DNA of 64,000 bases from Eledone cirrhosa (Eukaryota), in the NCBI GenBank assembly GCA_964016885.1, contig CAXHJY010001078.1:27227-91226 (forward strand), written 5' to 3'. Below the pieces are notes generated by a model that searched no databases, had not been told where the DNA came from, and saw nothing but the letters and a program-made list of their open reading frames with translations. Below, one piece after another: positions 18,698 to 59,440 of this stretch. The translations under genes and the position numbers were made by a program. Each line of letters opens with the position of its first letter. Position 1 is the stretch's first letter.

Positions 18698-19700
18698 GGA
18701 GCGACTGGGAATAAATTTAAACACCGTTACTCAATGAAACATTCCCAGCATCGTTATGTAACTACCCTTGCAAACAAGACCTGGCAACTGAGGGAAAGTA
18801 ACCATCAATACACCCTGAAGTGGAAAAAATTATCGAACGCGCCCCCATATCGGAGTGGTATGAGAAGCCGGCGGTTATGTGACCTTGAGCTGTTCCACAT
18901 TTTGAGTTCGAAGAATAAGTTACTCTACAACAAAAGCGAAAGATCATGTAACCATAGACTCAAAGAAAAGTTTTCGCACTACAAGGTACAAATTGAACCC
19001 TTAACCTCTTACTACCACCTGGCAAACTGCATATACTTAGACTTGAATCTAACCCCTTTAATTACCACAAAAACCAATACCTATTTCCCTCCCTCCTCCT
19101 TCATTCCTTTCCTATTTCTTTTCGTTTTCTTCCTTTCTTCTCTCCCTTTTTTCTATCTTTTCTTTTCTTCTTTCTGTTCACCCTTCTTTAATTTTTTTTT
19201 ATATATATATTTATCTCTCTATCTCCCCCCCCCCTCTCTATACCCCCCCTCTCTCTATATATATATAAACAATTCAATTCTCTTTAACTCCCTACACTGT
19301 AAATCAAGGACATGAAGTCTATGAATCAAAACTGATCAAGGAATCCTTCCATCTCTGCCCCTCCCTCCATCTCAGTTTGTCACTCTACTTCCTAAGTCTT
19401 CTATCCCTTCCTCTCTCTATATACTACTCCATTTGTCAATCCACTTTCTAATTCCGCTTCCTCTCTCTCTATACTAATAAATACAATTTATTAAAAAAAA
19501 ATGTTTTTATATATATTAAGAAGTTTTTAAGAGTAACTTATTCACTAGTTTGAAAATTTGGACATGTACAACAATTATTATTGAGTGGCTGCTATTTGCA
19601 GTATAGCAATATAAAGTTGCACTTACCAATGAAACGGTCGTAAATACCTGGATAAAATCCTTTTTTTAATGCTTACCAGTGTTTTCTCTTTTATCCTATA
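18692..19700 (+). mobile_element. Penelope-like element (Neptune-type) 3' fragment: GIY-YIG C-terminal half plus 3' region
   Basis: [13 protein letters not shown]...TTLANKTWQLR...W...APPY...LCDLE...LL.NKSERSCNH. Confidence 0.8.
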
Positions 19701-19756: not shown

Positions 19757-20766
19757 TCATCATCACCGTTTTACGTCCGTTCTTCAACGCTAGCATGGGT
19801 TAGACGGGTTGTCCTGTTGTGGGCAGTGTCTGGTCGGCTGACCATGCCTTGCTCATGCAGGAACTGATCTGGCTTGATTTCTACAGCTGGATGCCCTTCC
19901 TAACACCAACCTCATTTACAGTGAGTGCTGGGTGCTTTTTCGTGGTGCCTACACGTCCACTTTACAGTGTGGGCTGGGTGCTTTTTTGCCGTGGCACCTC
20001 CACGACCACCTTGCGGTGGGGGGAGTGGGGGCATATTGTTTATATGCTTCAGCATGTACCCATGGGAGGTCGGGTACCCTGTATTACTGCGTGACGCCAG
20101 AAGTCACGGTCGTGTGTCATTGACTTTGAGAGGTGTAGTTGGGTAAGGTCGGCTTTTATCACCTCATCCCAAGTCATCTTGGGTCTCCCCACTCCGCGGT
20201 TTCCATCAACTTCTAGTGCTCTGCACCTTTTTATGCAGCTGTCATCCTTCATACGCATCACATGTCCATACCAGCGTAACCGCCTCTCCTGCACGCAGCA
20301 TTTGATTCCTCTTATGCTCAGTCTCTCTCTCAATTCCTTTATGCTTTGTCGTTCACGTATATTACTGTTACACATCCATCGGAGCATGCAGGCTTCGTTT
20401 CTCTCTAATCTACGTAAGTCTTCCACCTTCAGCGCCCAAGTCTCACTACCATGCAACATCGCTGTTCGGATACATGCATCATACAGTCTGCCTTTCATTC
20501 TGAGGGAGAAGCCTTTTGCAGCTAGCAGTGGTAGTAGTTCCCTAAACTTCTTCCATCCCGTTCTTACCCTAGTTATTGTACTTTCTGAGCACCCACCTCC
20601 ATTGCTAATTCGGTCACCTAGGTAGCAGAAGCTGTCTACTGTTTCTACAGGGCCCTCCCAGAGATTGGTGGTACTTGTTTCCTGTGGCTGTTTGCTTGCT
20701 GTTTCAGCACAGCTGCTGCATGTGAATCCTACATTCTTAATTAAGCTTCCTGAGATCCCGCTACAT
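19757..20766 (-). mobile_element. RTE LINE family C, 5'-truncated
   Basis: ORF 20049-20498 ([26 protein letters not shown]); near-identical to 56415-57426. Confidence 0.93.
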
Positions 20767-20865
20767 ACATATATATATATAGGTATATATATATATATGT
20801 ATGTGTATATATATATATAGGTATATATATGTATGTGTATATATATATATAGGTATATATATATG

Positions 20866-20897
<32 letters not shown>

Positions 20898-20904
20898 GGT
20901 ATAT

Positions 20905-21908
20905 ATGGAGAAGAAGTTTATGAAACGGAAATGCGGGTATAAAGAATTTATTAGGTAACAATTGTTTCTATAGTGTATGGGTTACTTATACCTCGCTATT
21001 TGAATAATATAAAAATATTATCATAAACCGAAGGTACACTGTAAGAAAACACACCATGTCTTCAGACCTTTGTAGTAGAATGATATGAAAATATTTTATA
21101 CACTAGATAAAAGAGAAAGAAGGAGGTAGGAAGGGAAGAGGAAGAGGGAAGCGAGTCAGGGGGAGGGAGTCCTAGGATTTAAGACTATCAGAGTAGTAGA
21201 GATTGTAAGGAGAGAATACTTTGGCAGCAGTTAGCTTAATGAGGTGTGTTAGGGTTGGCGGGGGAAGTAAATTCTTCTAGTGGTGTTGTTTGGACAAAAT
21301 TTAGTTAAAGGGGTCAAAGTGGTACAGAGTTACCGACAAGTTATTGGGGCTATTATAGTAGCAGGTTATTTCTAAAGGGGTCCAAAAACAGTGTTTAGTA
21401 CTATTATTATAGAAAGCCATATCGTGTGTATAAACATATAAAACAGAAATTTGCAAACGGTGGTGTAAAAAGGTAACATTACATGCATTTAAAGAAAGAA
21501 AAAGTCGTTTTCAAACGATGGTTACAGTAAAGTGAAAGTTCAATTTTGCTGTTCAAAAGTTTGTTTTACGACGTTAAAATGCAGTATATCTCCATATTGC
21601 ATAATTTACAGAATCGCTGATTTTGCTGATATGCAGGCGCAGATGCAATAATTTGCCAATCAAGGGAGAATGCTTGATTGTTCCTCCGAAGCTGCCAGGC
21701 TTTATCGGCGAGGGTTGTTACGGAGCGCATTTTCTCAAGCCTGATCGAAGATCGATGTTGGTATAGGCGAGCTTTGAAAGATGTTGCGGTACATCCGACG
21801 TAATACGATTTGTTGGTTCCGGAATTTATTGTACATCAGTAGACAATATTGCGTGCTAGGCACTGGTTATTCAGTGGGCACGTACCTGGTTTGGTGCAGT
21901 TACAGTTA
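20905..21908 (-). mobile_element. Penelope-like element (Neptune-type) 3' fragment: Cys-rich linker, GIY-YIG, 3' region
   Basis: [22 protein letters not shown]...YYVGCTATSFKARLYQH...TTLADKAWQLR...FCKLCNME...LLNSKIE...CNHR, with two in-frame stops. Confidence 0.85.
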
Positions 21909-21909
21909 T

Positions 21910-21955
<46 letters not shown>

Positions 21956-25884: not shown

Positions 25885-28800
25885 CATGCTGTAAAATGGA
25901 GGGGTAGAGAGGGCCCTTGAGTCTAGTAAGACATCCTCTCTAGTGCTGGTGGCACAAATAAAAGCACCCAGTCCATGCTGTAAAGTGGCGCTGGTGTTAG
26001 GAAGGGCATCCAACCAGTGTATCAATGCCAAAAAGCTTATCAGCACAGCATCAAAACAGCATAGAAAAAATATGAAGACGTCGCATCTCAGAGTTGCAAC
26101 ACTTAATGTTGGCACTCTCAGAGGTAGATCTGCTGAAATAGCGGAGATGCTGGAGAGAAGGCAGGTGGATGTGTGCTGTGTGCAAGAGGTGAGATGGAGA
26201 GGTGCCTCTGCGAGACTAGTTGTAGGCAAGCGTCTTAGCTATAAGCTATTCTGGGTAGGTAAGGATGATGGGTTAGGGGGAGTAGGCATTTTCCTGGCTG
26301 AGAAATGGATCAATAAGACAATAGAGGTAGTTCGAGTTAGTAATCGAATAATTAAGCTTAGATTAGTTGTAGGTAGGAGACTACTGACAATCATCTTGGT
26401 CTATGCTCCCCAAGCAGGCCTAGGCAAAGATGAGAAAGACTGCTTTTATGAGCAACTTTTGCAAACAACCACAATGACAGAGGACGGAGACATCGTTATG
26501 CTAGCAGGAGACTTCAATGGTCATGTTGGACAGCTCCAGGATGGTTACACTGGGGTACATGGTGGGCACGGTTACGGTTCAAGAAATGAAGAAGGAGTGA
26601 GACTTCTTGAATTTTGTGATGCAAGTACATTGACTATTTGCAACACAAACTTCCAGAAACCTGCCAATCACCTAATAACCTACAAATCTGGTGAGCACAT
26701 AAGCCAGATTGACTTCCTGCTAGTTAGGCAGCGGGACAGGCAGATAGTGTCTAATACCAAGGCATACCCTGGGGAAGAATGTACCCCACAGCATAGGTTA
26801 GTTGTTAGTGATATCTCAGTAAGCAAGAGATGGAATGAGACATATAGGAAGGTGTGGAGAAGAAAGGTCTGGAAGCTAAAAGACCTTTCACTAAAATTCA
26901 AATTTAGGAAAGCCTTTCAAAATGTATATGACGAAAAAGAAGACGATTTAGAGACGTATGACATAGATAATAACTGGAAGTTCTTACGTGACAACTTGCT
27001 GCAGGCTACTGATGAAACCTGTGGCTGGAGCAGAGCTCCAACCAGACAGAGAGTGACCTGGTGGTGGAACAGCACAGTAGATAAGGCTATTAGAGACAAA
27101 AGACTAGCATGGAAGGCTTGGAAAAAGGGTGGGAGTAGGGAAGAATATACAGCCACTAAGAGAGAAGCTAGACGTCAGGTGTACTTAGCACGCAGGGAGG
27201 CAGAGAGTAGGAGGTTTGCCAATGTTCTGCGACGGGAAGATCAGAGGCGTGCGGTGTTCCACATTGCAAGGCAGTGTGTCAATGCAAATCAGGATGTTGT
27301 TGGAGATAAATGTGTCCGGGATGATGCCGGTGTACTTAGTGTCACGAATGACCAGAAAAAGGAGGCCTGAAATGTCATTATGAGAGACTGATGAATGTGG
27401 AGAACGAATGGGAGAGAGAGAAATTACCCTTGGTAGATCCGACAGAGGGACCAGCTATTGAGATTGACGAATATAGGGTCCAAGAGGCGATTAGGGAAAT
27501 GAAAAATGGCAAGGCGGCCGGACCATCCGGAATAGTTGCTGAGATGCTGAAGGCATCAGGGGACGTAGGCACTAAACTGGTTGCACGCATCATCAATCAG
27601 GCTATATATGGTGGTGTCATACCCAAAGACTGGTGCAGCAGTATTCTCATAAATTGCTACAAAGGTAAAGGGGATGCTTTGGAGAGGAGCAATTATAGGG
27701 GTATAAAACTGATAGATCAGGTTATGAAAGTGGCAGAAAGGATTTTAGCACAACTAATTAGAGAAAGGGTCAAACTAGATGAGATGCAGTTTGGTTTTGT
27801 GCCTGGGAAGAGTACAACAGATGCCCTCTTCTTGGTGAGACAAATGCAAGAGAGGTTCTTAGAGAAGAATAAGCCACTATACTTAGCCTTTGTTGACCTA
27901 GAGAAGGCCTTTGATAGGGTACCCCGATCTGTCATCTGGTAGTCCCTAAGGAAGCTAGGTGTTGAGGAATGGCTTGTGAGGACAGTGCAAACTTTGTACA
28001 GAGGTACTCTCAGTAAAGTCAGGGTAGGAATGGAGTTTAGTGAGGAATTCCAGATACAAGTAGGAGTACATCAGGGTTCGGTCCTCAGCCCGCTCTTGTT
28101 CATTATAGTCCTCCAAGCCATAACAGAGGAGTTTAAGACTGGCTGTCCATGGGAACTTCTCTGTGCTGACGATCTGGCTCTTATAGCAGAATCAGTAGAG
28201 GAGCTAGAGAACAAATTCCAGCTATGGAAACAGCAGTTGGAAGCAAGAGGACTGAGAGTAAATCTAGCTAAGACAAAAGTGTTGATGAGTAGAAAAGAGG
28301 ACAAAACCCTGATTCCGTCAGGGAAATGGCCATGTTTGATATGCAGAAAAGGAACTGGCATAAATTCTATAAAATGCACACAATGCAGGTCTTGGGTACA
28401 CAAGAGATGTAGCGGGATAGCAGGCAAACTAACAGGTAGGGAGAAATATGTATGCAGTAGATGTACAGGGAAATTAGACAGTAGAAGTCACACTGATAGA
28501 CACATTTTTCAAATGCGAAAGGGCGCTATAGAAGTGGTGGATAGCTTCCGGTACCTAGGAGATCAGATTAGCATGGGAGGAGGGTGTTCCGAGGCCATAG
28601 TATCTAGAATAAGGACGGGTTGGAAGAAGTTTAGGGAGCTGCTTCCTCTGTTGACGAAGAAGGGTTTCTCCCTGCATACGAAAGGCCGGTTGTATGATGC
28701 CTGTGTGAGGAGCGCGATGCTGCATGGTACTGAGACATGGGCAGCAACCGCAGAGGATATGCGACGGCTGGAGAGAAATGAGGCAAGCATGCTCCGTTGG

Positions 28801-29165
28801 ATGTGCAGTGTAAATGTGCGTGAACGACCCAGCATAAATGTGTTGAGAGAGAAACTGTGTCTGAGAGGGATAGAATGTAGTGTACGGGAGAGGAGACTGA
28901 GGTGGTATGGACATGTGATGCGCATGGAGGATGACCGATGGGTGAAGAAGTGCCAGGAAATGCCAGTTGAAGGAAGACGTGGTAGAGGTAGACCATGAAA
29001 AACATGGGCGGAGGTGGTGAGAACAGACCTCAGATCATTGAAGCTCACGGTGGAGATGACGAGGGACCGTGACGAGTGGAGAGATGCTGTGCTGAATAAG
29101 ACCCGTCCCACCCTTGCAAGCAGGGAAAAGCCGACGTAAAATGATGATGATGATGATGATGATGA
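25885..29165 (+). mobile_element. RTE LINE family A, near full length, inactivated
   Basis: 5' UTR module, single long ORF running into an (ATG)n tail at 29141-29165; 5' boundary approximate, no TSD found. Confidence 0.95.
26072..29139 (+). pseudogene. RTE ORF (~1020 aa): APE endonuclease - RT with inserted PHD finger - C-terminal domain
   Basis: ATLNV, CVQEVRW, YAPQ, GDFNGH, QIDF, QH; NYRGI, QFGF, FVDLEKAFD, GVHQGSVLSP, CADD. Lesions relative to the second copy: 1-bp deletion ~27369, TAG 27940-42, Y>C in YADD 28162-64, TGA 28996-98. Confidence 0.95.
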
Positions 29166-42593: not shown

Positions 42594-45291
42594 CATCATC
42601 ATCATCATCATCATTTTACGTCCGCTTTTCCCTGCCTGCAAGGGTGGGACGGGTCTTATTCAGCACAGCATCTCTCCACTCGTCACGGTCCCTCGTCATC
42701 TCCACCGTGAGCTTCAATGATCTGAGGTCTGTTCTCACCACCTCCGCCCATGTTTTTCGTGGTCTACCTCTACCACGTCTTCCTTCAACTGGCATTTCCT
42801 GGCACTTCTTCACTCATCGGTCATCCTCCATGCGCATCACATGTCCATACCACCTCAGTCTCCTCTCCCGTACACTACATTCTATCCCTCTCAGACACAG
42901 TTTCTCTCTCAACTCATTTATGCTGGGTCGTTCACGCACATTTACACTGCACATCCAACGGAGCATGCTTGCCTCATTTCTCTCCAGCCGTCGCATATCT
43001 TCTGCGGTAGCTGCCCATGTCTCACTACCATGCAGCATCGCGCTCCTCACACAGGCATCATACAACCGGCCTTTCGTACGCAGGGAGAAACCCTTCTTTG
43101 TCAACAGAGGAAGCAGCTCCCTAAACTTCTTCCAACCCGTCCTTATTCTAGATACTATGGCCTCGGAACACCCTCCTCCCATGCTAATCTGATCTCCTAG
43201 GTACCGGAAGCTATCCACCACTTCTATAGCGCCCTCTCGCATTTGAAAAATGTGTCTATCAGTGCGACTTCTACTGTCTAATTTCCCTGTACATCTACTG
43301 CATACATATTTCTCCCTACCTGTTAGTTTGCCTGCTATCCCGCTACATCTCTTGTGTACCCAGGACCTACATTGTGTGCATTTTATAGAATTTATGCCAG
43401 TTCCTTTTCTGCATATCGAACATGGCCATTTCCCTGACGGAATCAGGGTTTTGTCCTCTTTTCTACTTATCAACACTTTTGTCTTAGCTAGATTTACTCT
43501 CAGTCCTCTTGCTTCCAACTGTTGTTTCCATAGCCGGAATTTATTCTCTAGCTCCTCTACTGATTCTGCCATAAGAGCCAGATCGTCAGCATAGAGAAGT
43601 TCCCATGGACAGCCAGTCTTAAACTCCTCTGTTATGGCTTGGAGGACTATAATGAACAAGAGCGGGCTGAGGACCGAACCCTGATGTACTCCTACTTGTA
43701 TCTGGAATTCCTCACTAAACTCCATTCCTACCCTGACTTTACTGAGAGTACCTCTGTACAAAGTTTGCACTGTCCTTACAAGCCATTCCTCAACACCCAG
43801 CTTCCTTAGGGACCACCAGATGACAGATCGGGGTACCCTATCAAAGGCCTTCTCTAGGTCAACAAAGGCTAAGTATAGTGGCTTATTCTTCTCTAAGAAC
43901 CTCTCTTGCATTAGTCTCACCAAGAAGAGGGCATCTGTTGTACTCTTCCCAGGCACAAAACCAAACTGCATCTCATCTAGTTTGACCCTTTCTCTAATTA
44001 GTTGTGCTAAAATCCTTTCTGCCACTTTCATAACCTGATCTATCAGTTTTATACCCCTATAATTGCTCCTCTCCAAAGCATCCCCTTTACCTTTGTAGCA
44101 ATTTATGAGAATACTGCTGCACCAGTCTTTGGGTATGACACCACCATATATAGCCTGATTGATTATGCGTGCAACCAGTTTAGTGCCTACGTCCCCTGAT
44201 GCCTTCAGCATCTCAGCAACTATTCCCGATGGTCCGGCCGCCTTACCATTTTTCATTTCCCTAATCGCCTCTTGGACCCTATATTCGTCAATCTCAATAG
44301 CTGGTCCCTCTGTCGGATCTACCAAGGGTAATTTCTCTCTCTCCCATTCGTTCTCCACATTCATCAGTCTCTCATAATGACATTTCCAGGCCTCCTTTTT
44401 CTGGTCATTCGTGACACTAAGTACACCGGCATCATCCCGGACACATTTATCACCAACAACATCCTGATTTGCATTGACACACTGCCTTGCAATGTGGAAC
44501 ACCGCACGCCTCTGATCTTCCCGTCGCAAAACATTGGCAAACCTCCTACTCTCTGCCTCCCTGCGTGCTAAGTACACCTGACGTCTAGCTTCTCTCTTAG
44601 TGGCTGTATATTCTTCCCTACTCCCACCCTTATTCCAAGCCTTCCATGCTAGTCTTTTGTCTCTAATAGCCTTATCTACACTGCTGTTCCACCACCAGGT
44701 CACTCTCTGTCTGGTTGGAGCTCTGCTCCAGCCACAGGTTTCATCAGTAGCCTTCAGCAAGTTGTCACGTAAGAACTTCCAGTTATTATCTATGTCATAC
44801 GTCTCTAAATCGTCTTCTTTTTCGTCATATACATCTTGAAGGGCTTTCCTAAATTTGAATTTTAGTGAAAGGTCTTTTAGCTTCCAGACCTTTCTTCTCC
44901 ACACCTTCCTATATGTCTCATTCCATCTCTTGCTTACTGAGATATCACTAACAACTAACCTATGCTGTGGGGTACATTCTTCCCCAGGGTATGCCTTGGT
45001 ATTAGACACTATCTGCCTGTCCCGCTGCCTAACTAGCAGGAAGTCAATCTGGCTTATGTGCTCACCAGATTTGTAGGTTATTAGGTGATTGGCAGGTTTC
45101 TGGAAGTTTGTGTTGCAAATGGTCAATGTACTTGCATCACAAAATTCAAGAAGTCTCACTCCTTCTTCATTTCTTGAACCGTAACCGTGCCCACCATGTA
45201 CCCCAGTGTAACCATCCTGGAGCTGTCCAACATGACCATTGAAGTCTCCTGCTAGCATAACGATGTCTCCGTCCTCTGTCATTGTGGTTGT
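42593..45291 (-). mobile_element. RTE LINE family A, 5'-truncated within the endonuclease; ORF open for 822 aa
   Basis: Intact YADD; single TGG>TGA stop at 42814-16; near-identical to 26464-29160. Confidence 0.96.
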
Positions 45292-46136: not shown

Positions 46137-46320
46137 TGTGGATTGGCAGTATCGGTAGAGGGTCGGACGCCATGCTTTCCAGCATAGTTACGTCCTATTA
46201 CGATCTGAGTTCAAATCCCGCCGAGGTTGACTTTGCCTTTCATCCTTACGGGGTCGATAAAATAAAGTACCAGTAATGCACTGGGTAATTGCTGGCCTTG
46301 TGCCTAAAGTAGAAACAATT
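46137..46320 (+). mobile_element. Young Deu/Nin-type SINE inside (TA)n
   Basis: Near-consensus copy with A and B boxes. Confidence 0.9.
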
Positions 46321-46327
46321 ATATATA

Positions 46328-46373
<46 letters not shown>

Positions 46374-47949: not shown

Positions 47950-48209
47950 ATATATATATATTTATTAAAATAACAGATTAAAGTTTAAGCAAAGGAGTCC
48001 TCTTTGGATTTTAGTCTTCAAATTTATTATTATTACTATATATACATATATATATATAACATATATACATATATCTATATCTATATATATATCATGTATA
48101 TATATTATATATATACATACACAAGCAAATGCATGCACACACACACACGCATACATACACACATACATGCACACACACACACATATACACACACATTATA
48201 TATATATAT

Positions 48210-48396
48210 AATTGTTTCTACTTTAGGCACAAGGCCAGCAATTACGCAGTTCATTACTGGTACTTTATTTTATCGACCCCGTTAGGATGAAAGGCAAAGT
48301 CAACCTCGGCGGGATTTGAACTCAGATCGTAATGGGACGTAACTATGCTGGAAAGCATGGCGTCCGACCCTCTACCGATACTGCCAATCCACCGCC
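48210..48396 (-). mobile_element. Young Deu/Nin-type SINE
   Basis: Reverse complement of the consensus. Confidence 0.9.
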
Positions 48397-48472: not shown

Positions 48473-48610
48473 GAGTTACGTCCCTTTATGGTCTGAGTTC
48501 AAATCCCACCGAGGTTAACTTTGCCTTTCATCCTTACGGGGTCGATAAAATAAAGTACCAGTAATACACTGGGTTAATTGCTGGCCTTGTGCCAAATGTA
48601 GAAACAATTA
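48473..48610 (+). mobile_element. 5'-truncated Deu/Nin-type SINE
   Basis: B box, core and tail present. Confidence 0.85.
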
Positions 48611-49037
48611 TATATATATATTACTATTATTTGAATTCCCTCTGTTGCTACACATGTTTTTTTTTTAACACTTATTTACAAATTCTACATTATAGTCTAC
48701 TGACTCTACTTACATTCCACTGAGGAATTGCAAATATCTTCTTGGATACTTTTATAAAACCTTGAATATAATAGCACTAAATAAGTCCTCATATTCTCAC
48801 ATGCATATGTATAAAAAATCTATTGTGTGTGGTGGCAATGTTTTATTGCTGGTATGCATTCAAACACAAATACACACAAACACACACCTGATCACATTTT
48901 TTGTTTATATAAACATATATATATATAAATTATTAGAAATGTAAGCTATCACCGTATTTTGACTAAAGAAATTAAAGAAATTATTTAGCCTGATAGTGGG
49001 GTTAAGAACCCTCAGAGAGATGGAAAAAGACGAGTAT

Positions 49038-49109
49038 TGACGTACATGGGAGTCGAACACACATCTTTGGTTATCCGGACCACTGTGCTACCATTTACAC
49101 CAACACATC
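49038..49109 (-). ncRNA. tRNA-like cloverleaf (inverted copy)
   Basis: Reverse complement of 49228-49299 with one T-stem mismatch. Confidence 0.55.
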
Positions 49110-49227
49110 ACCCATCTCTTTCCATTCAAATTAGAAGCTATAAACTTAGCGACTGTAATGTCAAGTAAGAATATTTTCGAAACAGCGCTAAGTTTATAGC
49201 TTCTAATTTGAATGGAAAGAGACGGGT

Positions 49228-49299
49228 GATGTGTTGGTGTAAATGGTAGCACAGTGGTCCGGATAACCAAAGATGTGGGTTCGACTCCCATGTACGTCA
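49228..49299 (+). ncRNA. tRNA-like cloverleaf (72 nt, nominal anticodon GGA), probably a tRNA mimic or pseudo-tRNA
   Basis: GATGTGT/GTACGTC acceptor, GTGT-AAATGGTA-GCAC D arm, TGGT-CCGGATA-ACCA anticodon arm, GTGGG-TTCGACT-CCCAT T arm; C33, T37 and a 4-nt variable loop are atypical for tRNA-Ser. Confidence 0.6.
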
Positions 49300-49444
49300 A
49301 TACTCATCTTTTCCCATTTCTCCGAGGGTTTTTAACCCCACTATCAGGCTAAATAATTTCTTTAATTTCTTTAGTCAAAATACGGCGATATCTTACATTT
49401 CTAATAATTTCAAACCCACTCGCTGTTTCGAAAATATTCTTACT

Positions 49445-49502
<58 letters not shown>

Positions 49503-56414: not shown

Positions 56415-57621
56415 CATCATCATCATCATCACCGTTTTACGTCCGTTCTTCCACGCTAGCATGGGTTAGACGGGTTGTCCTGTTGTGGGCAGTGTCTGGT
56501 CGGCTGACCATGCCTTGCTCATACAGGAACTGATCTGGCTTGATTTCTACAGCTGGATGCCCTTCCTAACACCAACCTCATTTACAGTGAGTGCTGGGTG
56601 CTTTTTCGTGGCGCCTACACGTCCACTTTACAGTGTGGGCTGGGTGCTTTTTTGCCGTGGCACCTCCACGACCACCTTGCGGTGGGGGGGGGGCATATTG
56701 TTTATATGCTTCAGCATGTACCCATGGGAGGTCGGGTACCCTGTATTACTGCGTGACGCCAGAAGTCACGGTCGTGTGTCATTCTCTTTGAGAGGTGTAG
56801 TTGGGTAAGGTCGGCTTTTATCACCTCATCCCAAGTCATCTTGGGTCTCCCCACTCCGCGGTTTCCATCAACTTCTAGTGCTCTGCACCTTTTTATGCAG
56901 CTGTCATCCTTCATACGCATCACATGTCCATACCAGCGTAACCGCCTCTCCTGCACGCAGCATTTGATTCCTCTTATGCTCAGTCTCTCTCTCAATTCAT
57001 TTATGCTTTGTCGTTCACGTATATTACTGTTACACATCCATCGGAGCATGCAGGCTTCGTTTCTCTCTAATCTACGTAAGTCTTCCACCTTCAGCGCCCA
57101 GGTCTCACTACCATGCAACATCGCTGTTCGGATACACGCATCATACAGTCTGCCTTTCATTCTGAGGGAGAAGCCTTTTGCAGCTAGCAGTGGTAGTAGT
57201 TCCCTAAACTTCTTCCATCCCGTTCTTACCCTAGTTATTGTACTTTCTGAGCACCCACCTCCGTTGCTAATTCGGTCACCTAGGTAGCAGAAGCTGTCTA
57301 CTGTTTCTACAGGGCCCTCCCAGAGATTGGTGGTACTTGTTTCCTGTGGCTGTTTGCTTGCTGTTTCAGCACAGCTGCTGCATGTGAATCCTACATTCTT
57401 AATTAAGCTTCCTGAGATCCCGCTACATCTCTTGTGTACCCATTGTTTGCATTTGGGGCAAAGAATGGAGTTCCTACCTACACCTTTCCTACATACTGAG
57501 CAAGGCCATTTCCCTGAGGGGATCTGGGTTCTGTTTTCTCGTCTACTTATAAGGACCTTAGTCTTTGTCATGTTGACTTTGAGGCCCTTTCTCTCTAGTC
57601 CCTGCTTCCAGGTTTGGAATT
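56415..57621 (-). mobile_element. RTE LINE family C, 5'-truncated, frame open (PHD, RT end, C-terminus, 3' UTR)
   Basis: ORF 56711-57703; CSVC...CPKC...HKRC...CSSC; FCYLG; (CAT)n tail. Confidence 0.94.
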
Positions 57622-59440
57622 TATTATATATAAAATATATATAAAAAATTATGATTAATATACTTAAGAAATAGTTAATAAATATCTTAATACTCTTTAC
57701 CATTTTAAAGATTTAATGTTCACATGAGCACTCAAAAATTGTTATCAGCCCTCTGTTTCTTATTTAATGCTTGAACTAACAGAACTGTATTCCAGTTAAA
57801 GAATTTGTTAACATGCAAAAAGAAAAAAAAAAGGATACAAATTTAAAGGCATGGTCTTTGCTGAAATATACTGTATCAGAATCCTCAACGGTGAAATAAT
57901 ATCATAGCAATGGCCTTTTCAGTCGATATGAACTGAATATTGTATTGTAATTTTCATTACATGTAGGGATGCACACACACATATATGTAATTCCTCTCTT
58001 GTACAACATGAACATTAAACTAAAATACGTTAATATGCACAAGCTGGATTAGTGTATGCAAATGTGTTGAATGAATAGATTAGTTCATATATTGTAAACA
58101 AAACAAGTGGTTTGGAGGAAATATAGCCAGAAATTGGTTTTTGAAAGTGTATTTATTTGCAACCGACCAAGAAAGGAAATTGGATCTTCCCAGATAAGAT
58201 GATATAGAATAGAGTTGCATTTTCATTTTCTGTATGTACACCAACAAAATAACTCTTATTACTATTAAACACTCTCCACAACATCTTATCTACCTCCCAG
58301 TTTATCACTCATTCCTTTAACTCAGCCATTGTATTAACCAAAGCTCTGGCTACAAATTCCGGTTCCTGAACATCTATCATATACTTTTTTTCAGTTATCG
58401 TTCAAATCTCATCGCAAGGCTACATTCACTTAACTTTTCCTTCTTGATCAAAAGAACAACAAACCTAAAGCACTGAATATAGATATCAACACAAATAACC
58501 ATTTGAATATGTATCATTATGAATTACTGAATTACATTTAAAGAATTATCAACCCCATACTGAAGTGCTACATATTAAAATTTGTTGATACATATATACT
58601 ATATTGATATTATCTTCATAGACACTCATAAAACACACATACATATAAAAATATTCTTCACTTCTATGTTTCAATAAACATTTTGTTTAACAAAACTTTC
58701 ATAACTATATTTTAATCAGTGTTTGCCAGAAGAATGTAAGAACTTTGATCTTGCAAAACAACTAAATATTTCATAATCACTCAAAATCAATAAGTTTTTT
58801 TTTTCCAGAATTCTTCTTGTAGTTACTATTTTTTCTTCTTCCTGTCATTTCTTCGAATACATTGGAATATGTCTGATACAATATTATGTTGTTGTTTTTT
58901 TACCAAGTCAAATATTTGAGATGGTGATACAATAGATCGATATATAATAACATTTATTTTATGTTATAGACATGCATGGGTGTATATATATTCAGAAACT
59001 ATACACATTTATTGTGCACTATAAATATAGTTCAACATTATTTCTGTCTAGTTCATATTTTTTGCATTATCTGTGAGGTTGGAATATTTTCCTATAAACA
59101 CTATTTTATTAATACATGAAATAAAATAAATTTACATTATTTCAATGCTTCCTGATTCACATTACTGATATCTATTTTTCATTATTTTGTTGGGAAATAC
59201 TGCTGGCATTGATGTAATCAATATTCAAATTTGCTTTTTGTTTAAAATATTGAGCAAGGATACATTTCCAGAGGCTTACAATCTGGGGATCAATGATTGA
59301 GTATTTAATGTAGATGGAACTAAGTAAGGATGACAAGTGGATAGTATAGTGCATCAGCCAGAGTGGTAGTGGTATATATTTTCTTGATTCAGAGTAACAC
59401 AGGCTGTTGTAATAACAGTAGAACAATATGAAATGAATAA

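Follow-up and report, generated by a model that had tools for sequence, protein, structure and literature searches.

A palindrome between TA repeats as a probable insertion of a tRNA-headed 271-nt repeat mobilised by Penelope-like enzymes

The palindrome at 48927-49447 of the window (the whole stretch of DNA analysed, 64,000 nt) was identified as probably a young insertion of a 271-nt repeat that is non-coding, occurs in high copy number and has no recognisable ribozyme. This identification belongs to a wider explanation, to which we give a probability of about 0.6, in which the repeat would be transcribed by Pol III, would carry m1A58 in its tRNA-like head and would be copied from a linear multimeric template. 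As judged from sequence, the family is classed as a non-autonomous, apparently PLE-dependent tandem retroelement whose tRNA head takes the place of a hammerhead, and the enzymes of Penelope-like retrotransposons (PLEs) likely pasted the 271-nt repeats into TA repeats. The copy anatomy and the clusters of breakpoints described below are direct observations.

Anatomy of the palindrome

The two arms of the palindrome (48927-49151 and 49186-49410) are 225 nt each, 96% complementary (9 mismatches out of 225 positions) and spaced by 34 nt. A 27-nt sequence, X, was found at 49161-49187 on the plus strand and again at 49447-49421 on the minus strand, and the 9-nt and 10-nt linkers of the units were present as described in the original prediction. 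Because X is duplicated and both linkers are as described, the two units are pieces of one 271-nt cycle. They measure 261 and 262 nt, and since each lacks one linker, neither is a whole monomer. The predicted palindrome of a permuted cycle of about 271 nt was thus borne out in its arms, X, linkers and (TA)n flanks on either side. The cycle is real: tandem copies elsewhere in the genome pass through the exact 9-nt linker (49152-49160, minus strand; m263-271) that closes it. The layout had been read correctly but was written in antisense to the tRNA; the polarity of the copies shows that the RNA strand is that of the tRNA. Monomer coordinates (m) are given in the tRNA sense (plus strand), with m1 at 49186, m262 at 49447 and m263-271 as the reverse complement of 49152-49160.

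The sense arm (49186-49447, plus strand) covers m1-262 and ends at the fixed 3′ end of the family. The inverted arm (48927-49187, minus strand) runs through m236-271 and then m1-225, crosses the unit junction and has its outer end, m225, on (TA)n; the two arms are joined via a 2-nt overlap. A 37-nt tail of PLE type (49411-49447, plus strand) is present at one outer end only. The left target (48904-48926) is (TA)n-rich and the right target (49447-49500) is (TA)27. The element occurs once in the 64-kb window. Chance or an assembly fold-back does not account for the palindrome, because its arms have diverged, 56 of 87 sampled loci share the inverted layout and short-read contigs agree; these contigs, which possibly come from the source sample and would thus not be independent, carry the left junction and the same types of join.

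Insertion layout and Penelope-like elements in the genome

The proposed genome-wide search for tandem or permuted copies returned thousands of copies and ruled out a single-copy locus. A 23-nt tail motif had 1,378 exact matches in the 3.0-Gb genome (control, 0), and the right arm as query gave 2,651 first-look candidates, the best copies being 95-98% identical (40 scored). A locus sample was drawn from 90 regions around the first listed tail-motif matches on contig C1, in position order, and removal of three duplicates (L053, L057 and L059) left 87 loci. Loci without a main arm (L082, L094, L123 and L125) were left out of the end-offset, 5′-end and poly(A) counts, L049 and L095 out of the 5′-end breakpoint count, and L049 and L099 out of the allele-sharing count, which pools first-look right-arm loci with the contig C1 sample.

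Sense 3′ ends fell at m257-262 in 84 of the 87 loci, and 59 outer ends of inverted arms fell at m200-226. A TA-rich flank was found at 75/87 sense ends and 52/59 inverted ends, and the offset between the two outer ends had a median of 39 nt, with 44/59 lying within 30-45. No inversion was seen in 31/87 loci, and in 14/87 the layout was tandem, the unit junction being crossed through the exact 9-nt linker. Poly(A) was found in none of 83 copies, and no TSD was discernible in 20 copies with a non-TA flank. Craig et al. (PMC8557442) describe EN+ PLEs as forming partial tandems and an inverted 5′-truncated copy, with insertion at (TA)n and a one-sided tail of 30-40 bp. The 271-nt family has what marks a non-autonomous PLE-mobilised element, namely the inverted and tandem layout, the tail at one end and the microsatellite target, in a genome that holds EN+ PLEs. 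Mobilisation of the PLE type is therefore very probable and well supported by the copy anatomy. The suggestion of a multi-copy, non-autonomous, tandem and permuted family with PLE-type ends and no ribozyme was supported throughout.

Two related subfamilies, B and C, were met by chance in PLE flanks. Subfamily B has units of 259-261 nt, 2,182 candidates and tandem junctions, and a motif from its tRNA part gave 269 exact matches; subfamily C has units of about 290 nt and 209 candidates. The subfamily consensuses are 83-98% alike, with unit lengths ranging over 259-291 nt. Related pieces were found in contigs of three organisms (A, B and C), those in organisms B and C being short.

The genome contains 10,597 GIY-YIG candidates, with long PLE-type ORFs present, and two sampled families of autonomous GIY-YIG PLEs have (TA)n ends with tails of about 35 nt. 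In these two families (L133, L136, L144, L152 and L160; L143, L149, L159 and L179) the tails start with the same 10-nt motif and are often split from the body by an expanded TA repeat. No partner PLE was identified: 62 PLE loci, a sample outside which the Naiads of this genome lie, showed no 3′ similarity to the 271-nt element. As candidate partners, a PLE fragment at 18710-19100 of the window and 50 GIY-YIG loci were rejected, having no common 3′ end with the element. Alignments of PLE tails were no better than those of shuffles (p 0.21-0.995), and the same held for a 6-nt motif at the tail starts. By eye there was no likeness to the published octopus Naiad ends given in PMC8557442, and three short motifs were absent from the supplement of that paper, where line breaks could hide a match. 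A stretch at 18710-19700 of the window is a 3′ fragment from a PLE family of very high abundance (47,404 candidates) and ends on (TA)n; we take this fragment to be Hydra-like. Another short PLE fragment, presumably zinc-finger/GIY-YIG-like, lies at 21860-21910 and adjoins a 950-nt TA array.

The family also resembles EN+ PLEs (Naiad, Hydra, Neptune) and the non-autonomous Chlamys element MRC1 in its partial tandems, inverted truncated arm, one-sided tail and (TA)n, as well as in having no clear TSD, and it differs from EN+ PLEs in having no ORF (PMC8557442). According to the same source, Naiads have no canonical hammerheads, and non-autonomous Chlamys generally share 3′ sequence with their partner, whereas none was found for the 271-nt family. 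The tRNA module of the family is unreported for EN+ PLEs and Chlamys in the parts of PMC8557442 considered here.

The tRNA-like module and the 5′ ends of copies

A cloverleaf was confirmed in each unit by ARAGORN (49227-49300, plus strand; 49037-49110, minus strand) and by Rfam, with tRNA scores of 42.4 and 32.8 bits at a cut-off of 29 bits. The module itself is m43-114 (49228-49299, plus strand), with a second copy in the inverted arm (49038-49109, minus strand), both called by ARAGORN and Rfam. Its A box lies at 49235-49246, its B box at 49278-49288 and A58 at 49284 (plus strand; m99). The imperfect pairing that had been noticed between the tRNA flanks was also recovered: the leader (49210-49227, plus strand; m25-42) can pair with the trailer (49302-49320, plus strand), a predicted extension of the acceptor stem by 17-18 bp. 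The trailer has a T5 run in the consensus and T4 in the window copy, a possible Pol III terminator. Across copies 93% of the cells of the leader-trailer helix were paired, with A:U/G:U changes only and no two-sided change. Behind it, the 3′ body (49327-49425, plus strand) is predicted to form three helices, in which two pairs change on both sides between subfamilies, lending them weak support.

In each of the five subfamily consensuses the A and B boxes are intact and a T5 run directly follows the tRNA. The anticodon loop varies between subfamilies (C33, G33 or U33, and U37; the window copy has C33 and U37), and because the loop is not conserved the module is not a decoding tRNA. A functional tRNA gene was likewise rejected, the combination of U33 and purine 37 in a conserved anticodon loop being absent. 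No parent tRNA was found among 16 tRNA-like loci retrieved, the closest of which was identical at 44/73 positions. RNAalifold on the five consensuses returned the cloverleaf, the extended helix and the three 3′ helices, with folding z-scores of -1.0 to -2.7 for the sense and -0.3 to -1.4 for the antisense strand; the window unit alone folded no better than shuffles (z -0.30). Across 11 distinct real copies 91.5% of cells pair, but only 2 of 58 pairs changed on both sides, equal to the 2 of a slid control, which makes the support for the structure weak. In subfamily C the acceptor stem is disrupted at its top.

No ribozyme family was returned when tandem copies of A, B and C were scanned against Rfam. 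The reported absence of CUGANGA was confirmed by a motif scan, which found no exact match on either strand of the five consensuses and was positive on its control, a PLE family (L166, L168, L170 and L196) with a minimal hammerhead at its 3′ end. The hammerhead-like centre that had been pointed out in the palindrome is antisense and coreless, and Rfam and motif scans of it were negative. A near-match, CUGAGGG, on the sense strand of subfamily B only was dismissed, since 48 nt separate it from GAAA and neither A nor C retains it. Matches to miRNAs in Rfam were below cut-off and arise from the palindrome.

The 5′ ends of 139 arms were compared with the expectation from a uniform stopping rate. 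Among 108 arms entering m98-112 (49283-49297, plus strand; at or just 3′ of A58), 57 stop there (8.3 expected), and this is the main 5′-truncation hotspot of the family. A second cluster was found at m37-47, where 13 of 40 arms stop (2.6 expected), and the stretch between the two is at baseline rate (11 seen, 16.4 expected). Arms joined directly to flanking DNA behave alike (6/15 at m98-112 and 3/7 at m37-47), and short-read contigs, possibly from the source sample, hold joints at both sites. Judged by eye, the breaks in subfamily B and C copies fall at the same position, with queries biased toward such copies. An apparent cluster at m177-179 reflected misalignment around a 9-nt slippage deletion and disappeared on re-analysis, and ends placed at m84 came from internal inverted likeness and were reset to m104. 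No indel hotspot, a candidate junction scar, was present at m30-45, and a raised substitution rate at m31-40 was mostly one polymorphism.

The two clusters are likely the DNA record of the RNA start and of a copying stall. From them we infer that the template contains a tRNA domain that is folded and probably modified, and that the RNA begins 3-4 nt before the tRNA. In retroviral reverse transcription of tRNA, m1A58 is the major stop, with minor stops at 54-55 (PMC13191261). Most breaks in the family lie 5-10 nt 3′ of A58, a minority of copies having junctions that, by eye, extend as far as m96-101, and among copies that continue past A58 there is no excess of substitutions at this base (3/93). 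Because of this missing excess and the distance of the breaks from A58, structure alone or an RNA cut could explain the breaks. Palindromic 4-mers at m104, m107 and m109 explain where head-to-head joins resolve, and a similar trio at m170-179 has no breakpoint excess. The suggested use of tRNA-processing enzymes fared less well. RNase Z processing is not supported, because m113-135, which contains the RNase Z site, has no excess of 5′ ends (18 seen, 18.8 expected; 139 arms). RNase P is not needed, because five family-A junctions, placed by eye at m39-40, begin 3-4 nt upstream of tRNA +1; many 5′ ends lie at m42-44. The tRNA had also been described as internal, but it is not always so: 13/139 arms begin at the tRNA 5′ end in a SINE-like manner. 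Transcription by Pol III is partly supported, because every one of the five consensuses retains both boxes and there is a cluster of 5′ ends where the tRNA begins; the T5 run that follows the tRNA speaks against it.

Template, source arrays and known systems

In the explanation that we favour, Pol III transcription from the tRNA promoter would start near m39-43 and often pass the T5 run into the next unit. The tRNA domain would fold and probably carry a modification (m1A58), and pairing of leader with trailer may protect units in read-through RNA against RNase P and RNase Z. A Penelope-like reverse transcriptase/endonuclease would then act at (TA)n, both ends of the cut priming cDNA, at m257-262 and at m200-226, about 39 nt apart. 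About half of the cDNAs would stop in the T arm or the 3′ strand of the acceptor stem, and a third of the remainder at the RNA 5′ end; two cDNAs joined head to head via short palindromic microhomologies would give a palindrome with a one-sided tail. The multimeric sources would be renewed by tandem expansion at the DNA level, possibly also by template jumps.

Arrays that could serve as such sources were found in two subfamilies. Subfamily C forms a pure satellite at 19.44-19.63 Mb of contig C28 (G000:C28, 19,440,705-19,629,770; L273-L292), with at least 650 units in the 200 kb examined, reaching the edge of that stretch. The satellite has higher-order variants, and its 3′ end is interrupted within a unit by other sequence, which in our estimation resembles a Helitron helicase. 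It was rejected as the source of the dispersed C copies sampled, since a marker allele is present in 0/650 of its units and in 20/22 dispersed loci. A double change in the D stem (G:C to C:G) is present in about 40% of the satellite units, and units with a single D-stem change number 5 of one kind and 0 of the other; because other common satellite variants break stems, the double change is suggestive only. In family A the longest array among the 39 best trimer candidates scored has about 10 units (G000:C4:61.01 Mb; L310-L312 and L319) and patchwork alleles. A double change disrupting the B box is common to five of these units. A later, post-insertion duplication of units was seen at L314. Patchwork alleles in the 10-unit array and the duplication at L314 mean that multimeric sources can be renewed by DNA-level expansion. 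At L323 a subfamily-C arm abuts a subfamily-A arm across a short TA run, which mimics a chimeric tandem.

A rather doubtful alternative keeps the PLE insertion but takes as template a circular RNA of unit length, or a single monomer that is re-entered through template jumps, made by tRNA-processing enzymes in place of a hammerhead and copied repeatedly. Unit junctions are crossed seamlessly, with 0, 1, 2 and 3 junctions in 119, 17, 2 and 1 arms, a roughly geometric series, as would suit a circle. Rare alleles are common to tandem units at 40/158 and to inverted units at 48/284, against 110/27,181 (0.4%) between loci, and no large family-A array appeared among the 39 candidates. Retrozyme circles of similar size are known (PMC7229834). 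On the other hand, a rare allele is shared in 7/32 tandem loci only, and part of the sharing is post-insertion duplication (L314 and the C4 array). The 13/40 arms that end at the tRNA start point to a real RNA 5′ end, the 5′ ends bear no RNase Z signature, and long DNA arrays exist as a linear type of source. Since growth of arrays takes place at the DNA level too, no circular RNA is required.

Animal non-LTR retrozymes consist of tandem units defined by hammerheads and have been proposed to be mobilised by PLEs (PMC7229834; bioRxiv 10.64898/2026.07.22.740005). The 271-nt family resembles them in its non-coding tandem units (170-400 nt in retrozymes, 259-291 here) and in its dispersed monomers or dimers beside long arrays, and it differs in lacking the type I hammerhead that retrozymes carry in each unit (PMC7229834). 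No tRNA module is described for retrozymes in these sources, the main text of Li et al. (bioRxiv 10.64898/2026.07.22.740005) using the word tRNA 0 times, and no likeness of the 271-nt element to PLE pLTRs, a further point of comparison with retrozymes, was found. The Schistosoma SINE-like repeats SM-alpha and Sj-alpha likewise have a Pol III promoter inside the tandem unit (predicted in the present family), give multimeric transcripts and need tandem copies for propagation; their multimers are cut by a hammerhead, whereas none is present here and the RNA 5′ end is apparently at the tRNA start (PMC6765202). That the family is a ribozyme-free counterpart of retrozymes, PLE-dependent, made by Pol III, tRNA-modified, protected by the leader-trailer helix and copied as a circle or a re-entered monomer, is put forward as a tentative idea. 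If such a replicon were real, its thousands of copies would record the m1A58 stop of a Penelope reverse transcriptase and its two priming sites at base resolution.

It is improbable that the element is instead carried in Pol II or host/PLE read-through RNA, with the tRNA module acting as a processing or folding signal (an RNase P cut at +1) and not as a promoter. Read-through is conceivable because the conserved T5 run should end many Pol III transcripts, and the many 5′ ends at m42-44 and the copies that often start upstream of their first tRNA would suit it. Against it stand the A and B boxes, intact in five of five consensuses, the five junctions upstream of the RNase P site and the acceptor-stem top broken in subfamily C.

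Very improbable and already largely refuted is a tRNA SINE that depends on a LINE and has undergone twin-priming inversions, or a MITE targeting TA with the arms as terminal inverted repeats: the short element with its A/B-box tRNA head, some copies that start at the tRNA, the TA-flanked palindrome and the RTE-type LINEs abundant in the window would fit, but poly(A) is absent (0/83), the arms have overlapping sequence and each begins close to the 3′ end, at one of two fixed sites, copies cross the unit junction, 31/87 loci have no inversion, and asymmetric, 5′-truncated ends replace the fixed symmetric termini of a MITE. As defined in SINEBase (PMC3531059), tRNA-derived SINEs share with the family an A/B-box tRNA head, a length below 700 bp and more than 100 copies; they are non-tandem, with a LINE partner and a simple-repeat tail, whereas the 271-nt family is tandem and permuted, has no simple-repeat tail of its own and has ends of PLE and not LINE type. 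The octopus SINEs OK, OR1 and OR2 and the Ceph-SINEs were set against the family by name only; octopus SINEs are also named in PMC4758252.

The PLE-dependent reading would also extend a known pattern. Like the TRIMs Helenus, Ajax and Cassandra, the family has a Pol III module derived from a small RNA in a non-autonomous parasite of a non-LINE retrotransposon; those are LTR elements with PBS and PPT, and the 271-nt family would be their PLE counterpart (PMC10886601). By definition SINEs are parasites of LINEs, and hammerheads are carried by the small PLE parasites known from animals; a tRNA-headed, hammerhead-free PLE passenger would fill the missing combination of a Pol III module with a PLE. 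No description of a tRNA-bearing PLE passenger was found in searches of the open literature. An earlier unlabelled or mislabelled consensus of the family likely exists; a recent annotation of O. vulgaris lists 893 recently active unclassified SINE families (PMC13282606). The integration of PLEs is described as mechanistically unresolved (PMC8557442), and a template of 271 nt for which two priming sites and two stop sites are mapped would suit testing in vitro. Retrotransposon insertions may be shaped by RNA modification, as the stop beside A58 suggests. Automatic annotation probably mislabels such families as SINE, tRNA, MITE or miRNA hairpins, and both ARAGORN and Rfam fire on the present one.

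Other repeats were seen alongside. Young RTE-type LINE copies lie at 25895-29000 and 42814-45291 of the window, and also at 20049-20981 and 56711-57712, one of them with an open frame of 825 aa. Another short repeat occurs at 46138-46367, 48163-48392 and 48474-48621, its copies 91-94% alike, in both orientations and TA/CA-flanked; we assume it to be probably a common SINE of the lineage. Elsewhere in the genome, ten dispersed, near-identical and high-scoring tRNA-like sequences (L295 and L297-L305) are distinguished chiefly by their anticodons (called Ala, Val, Thr and Asp) and are probably the heads of another repeat family that inflates tRNA counts.
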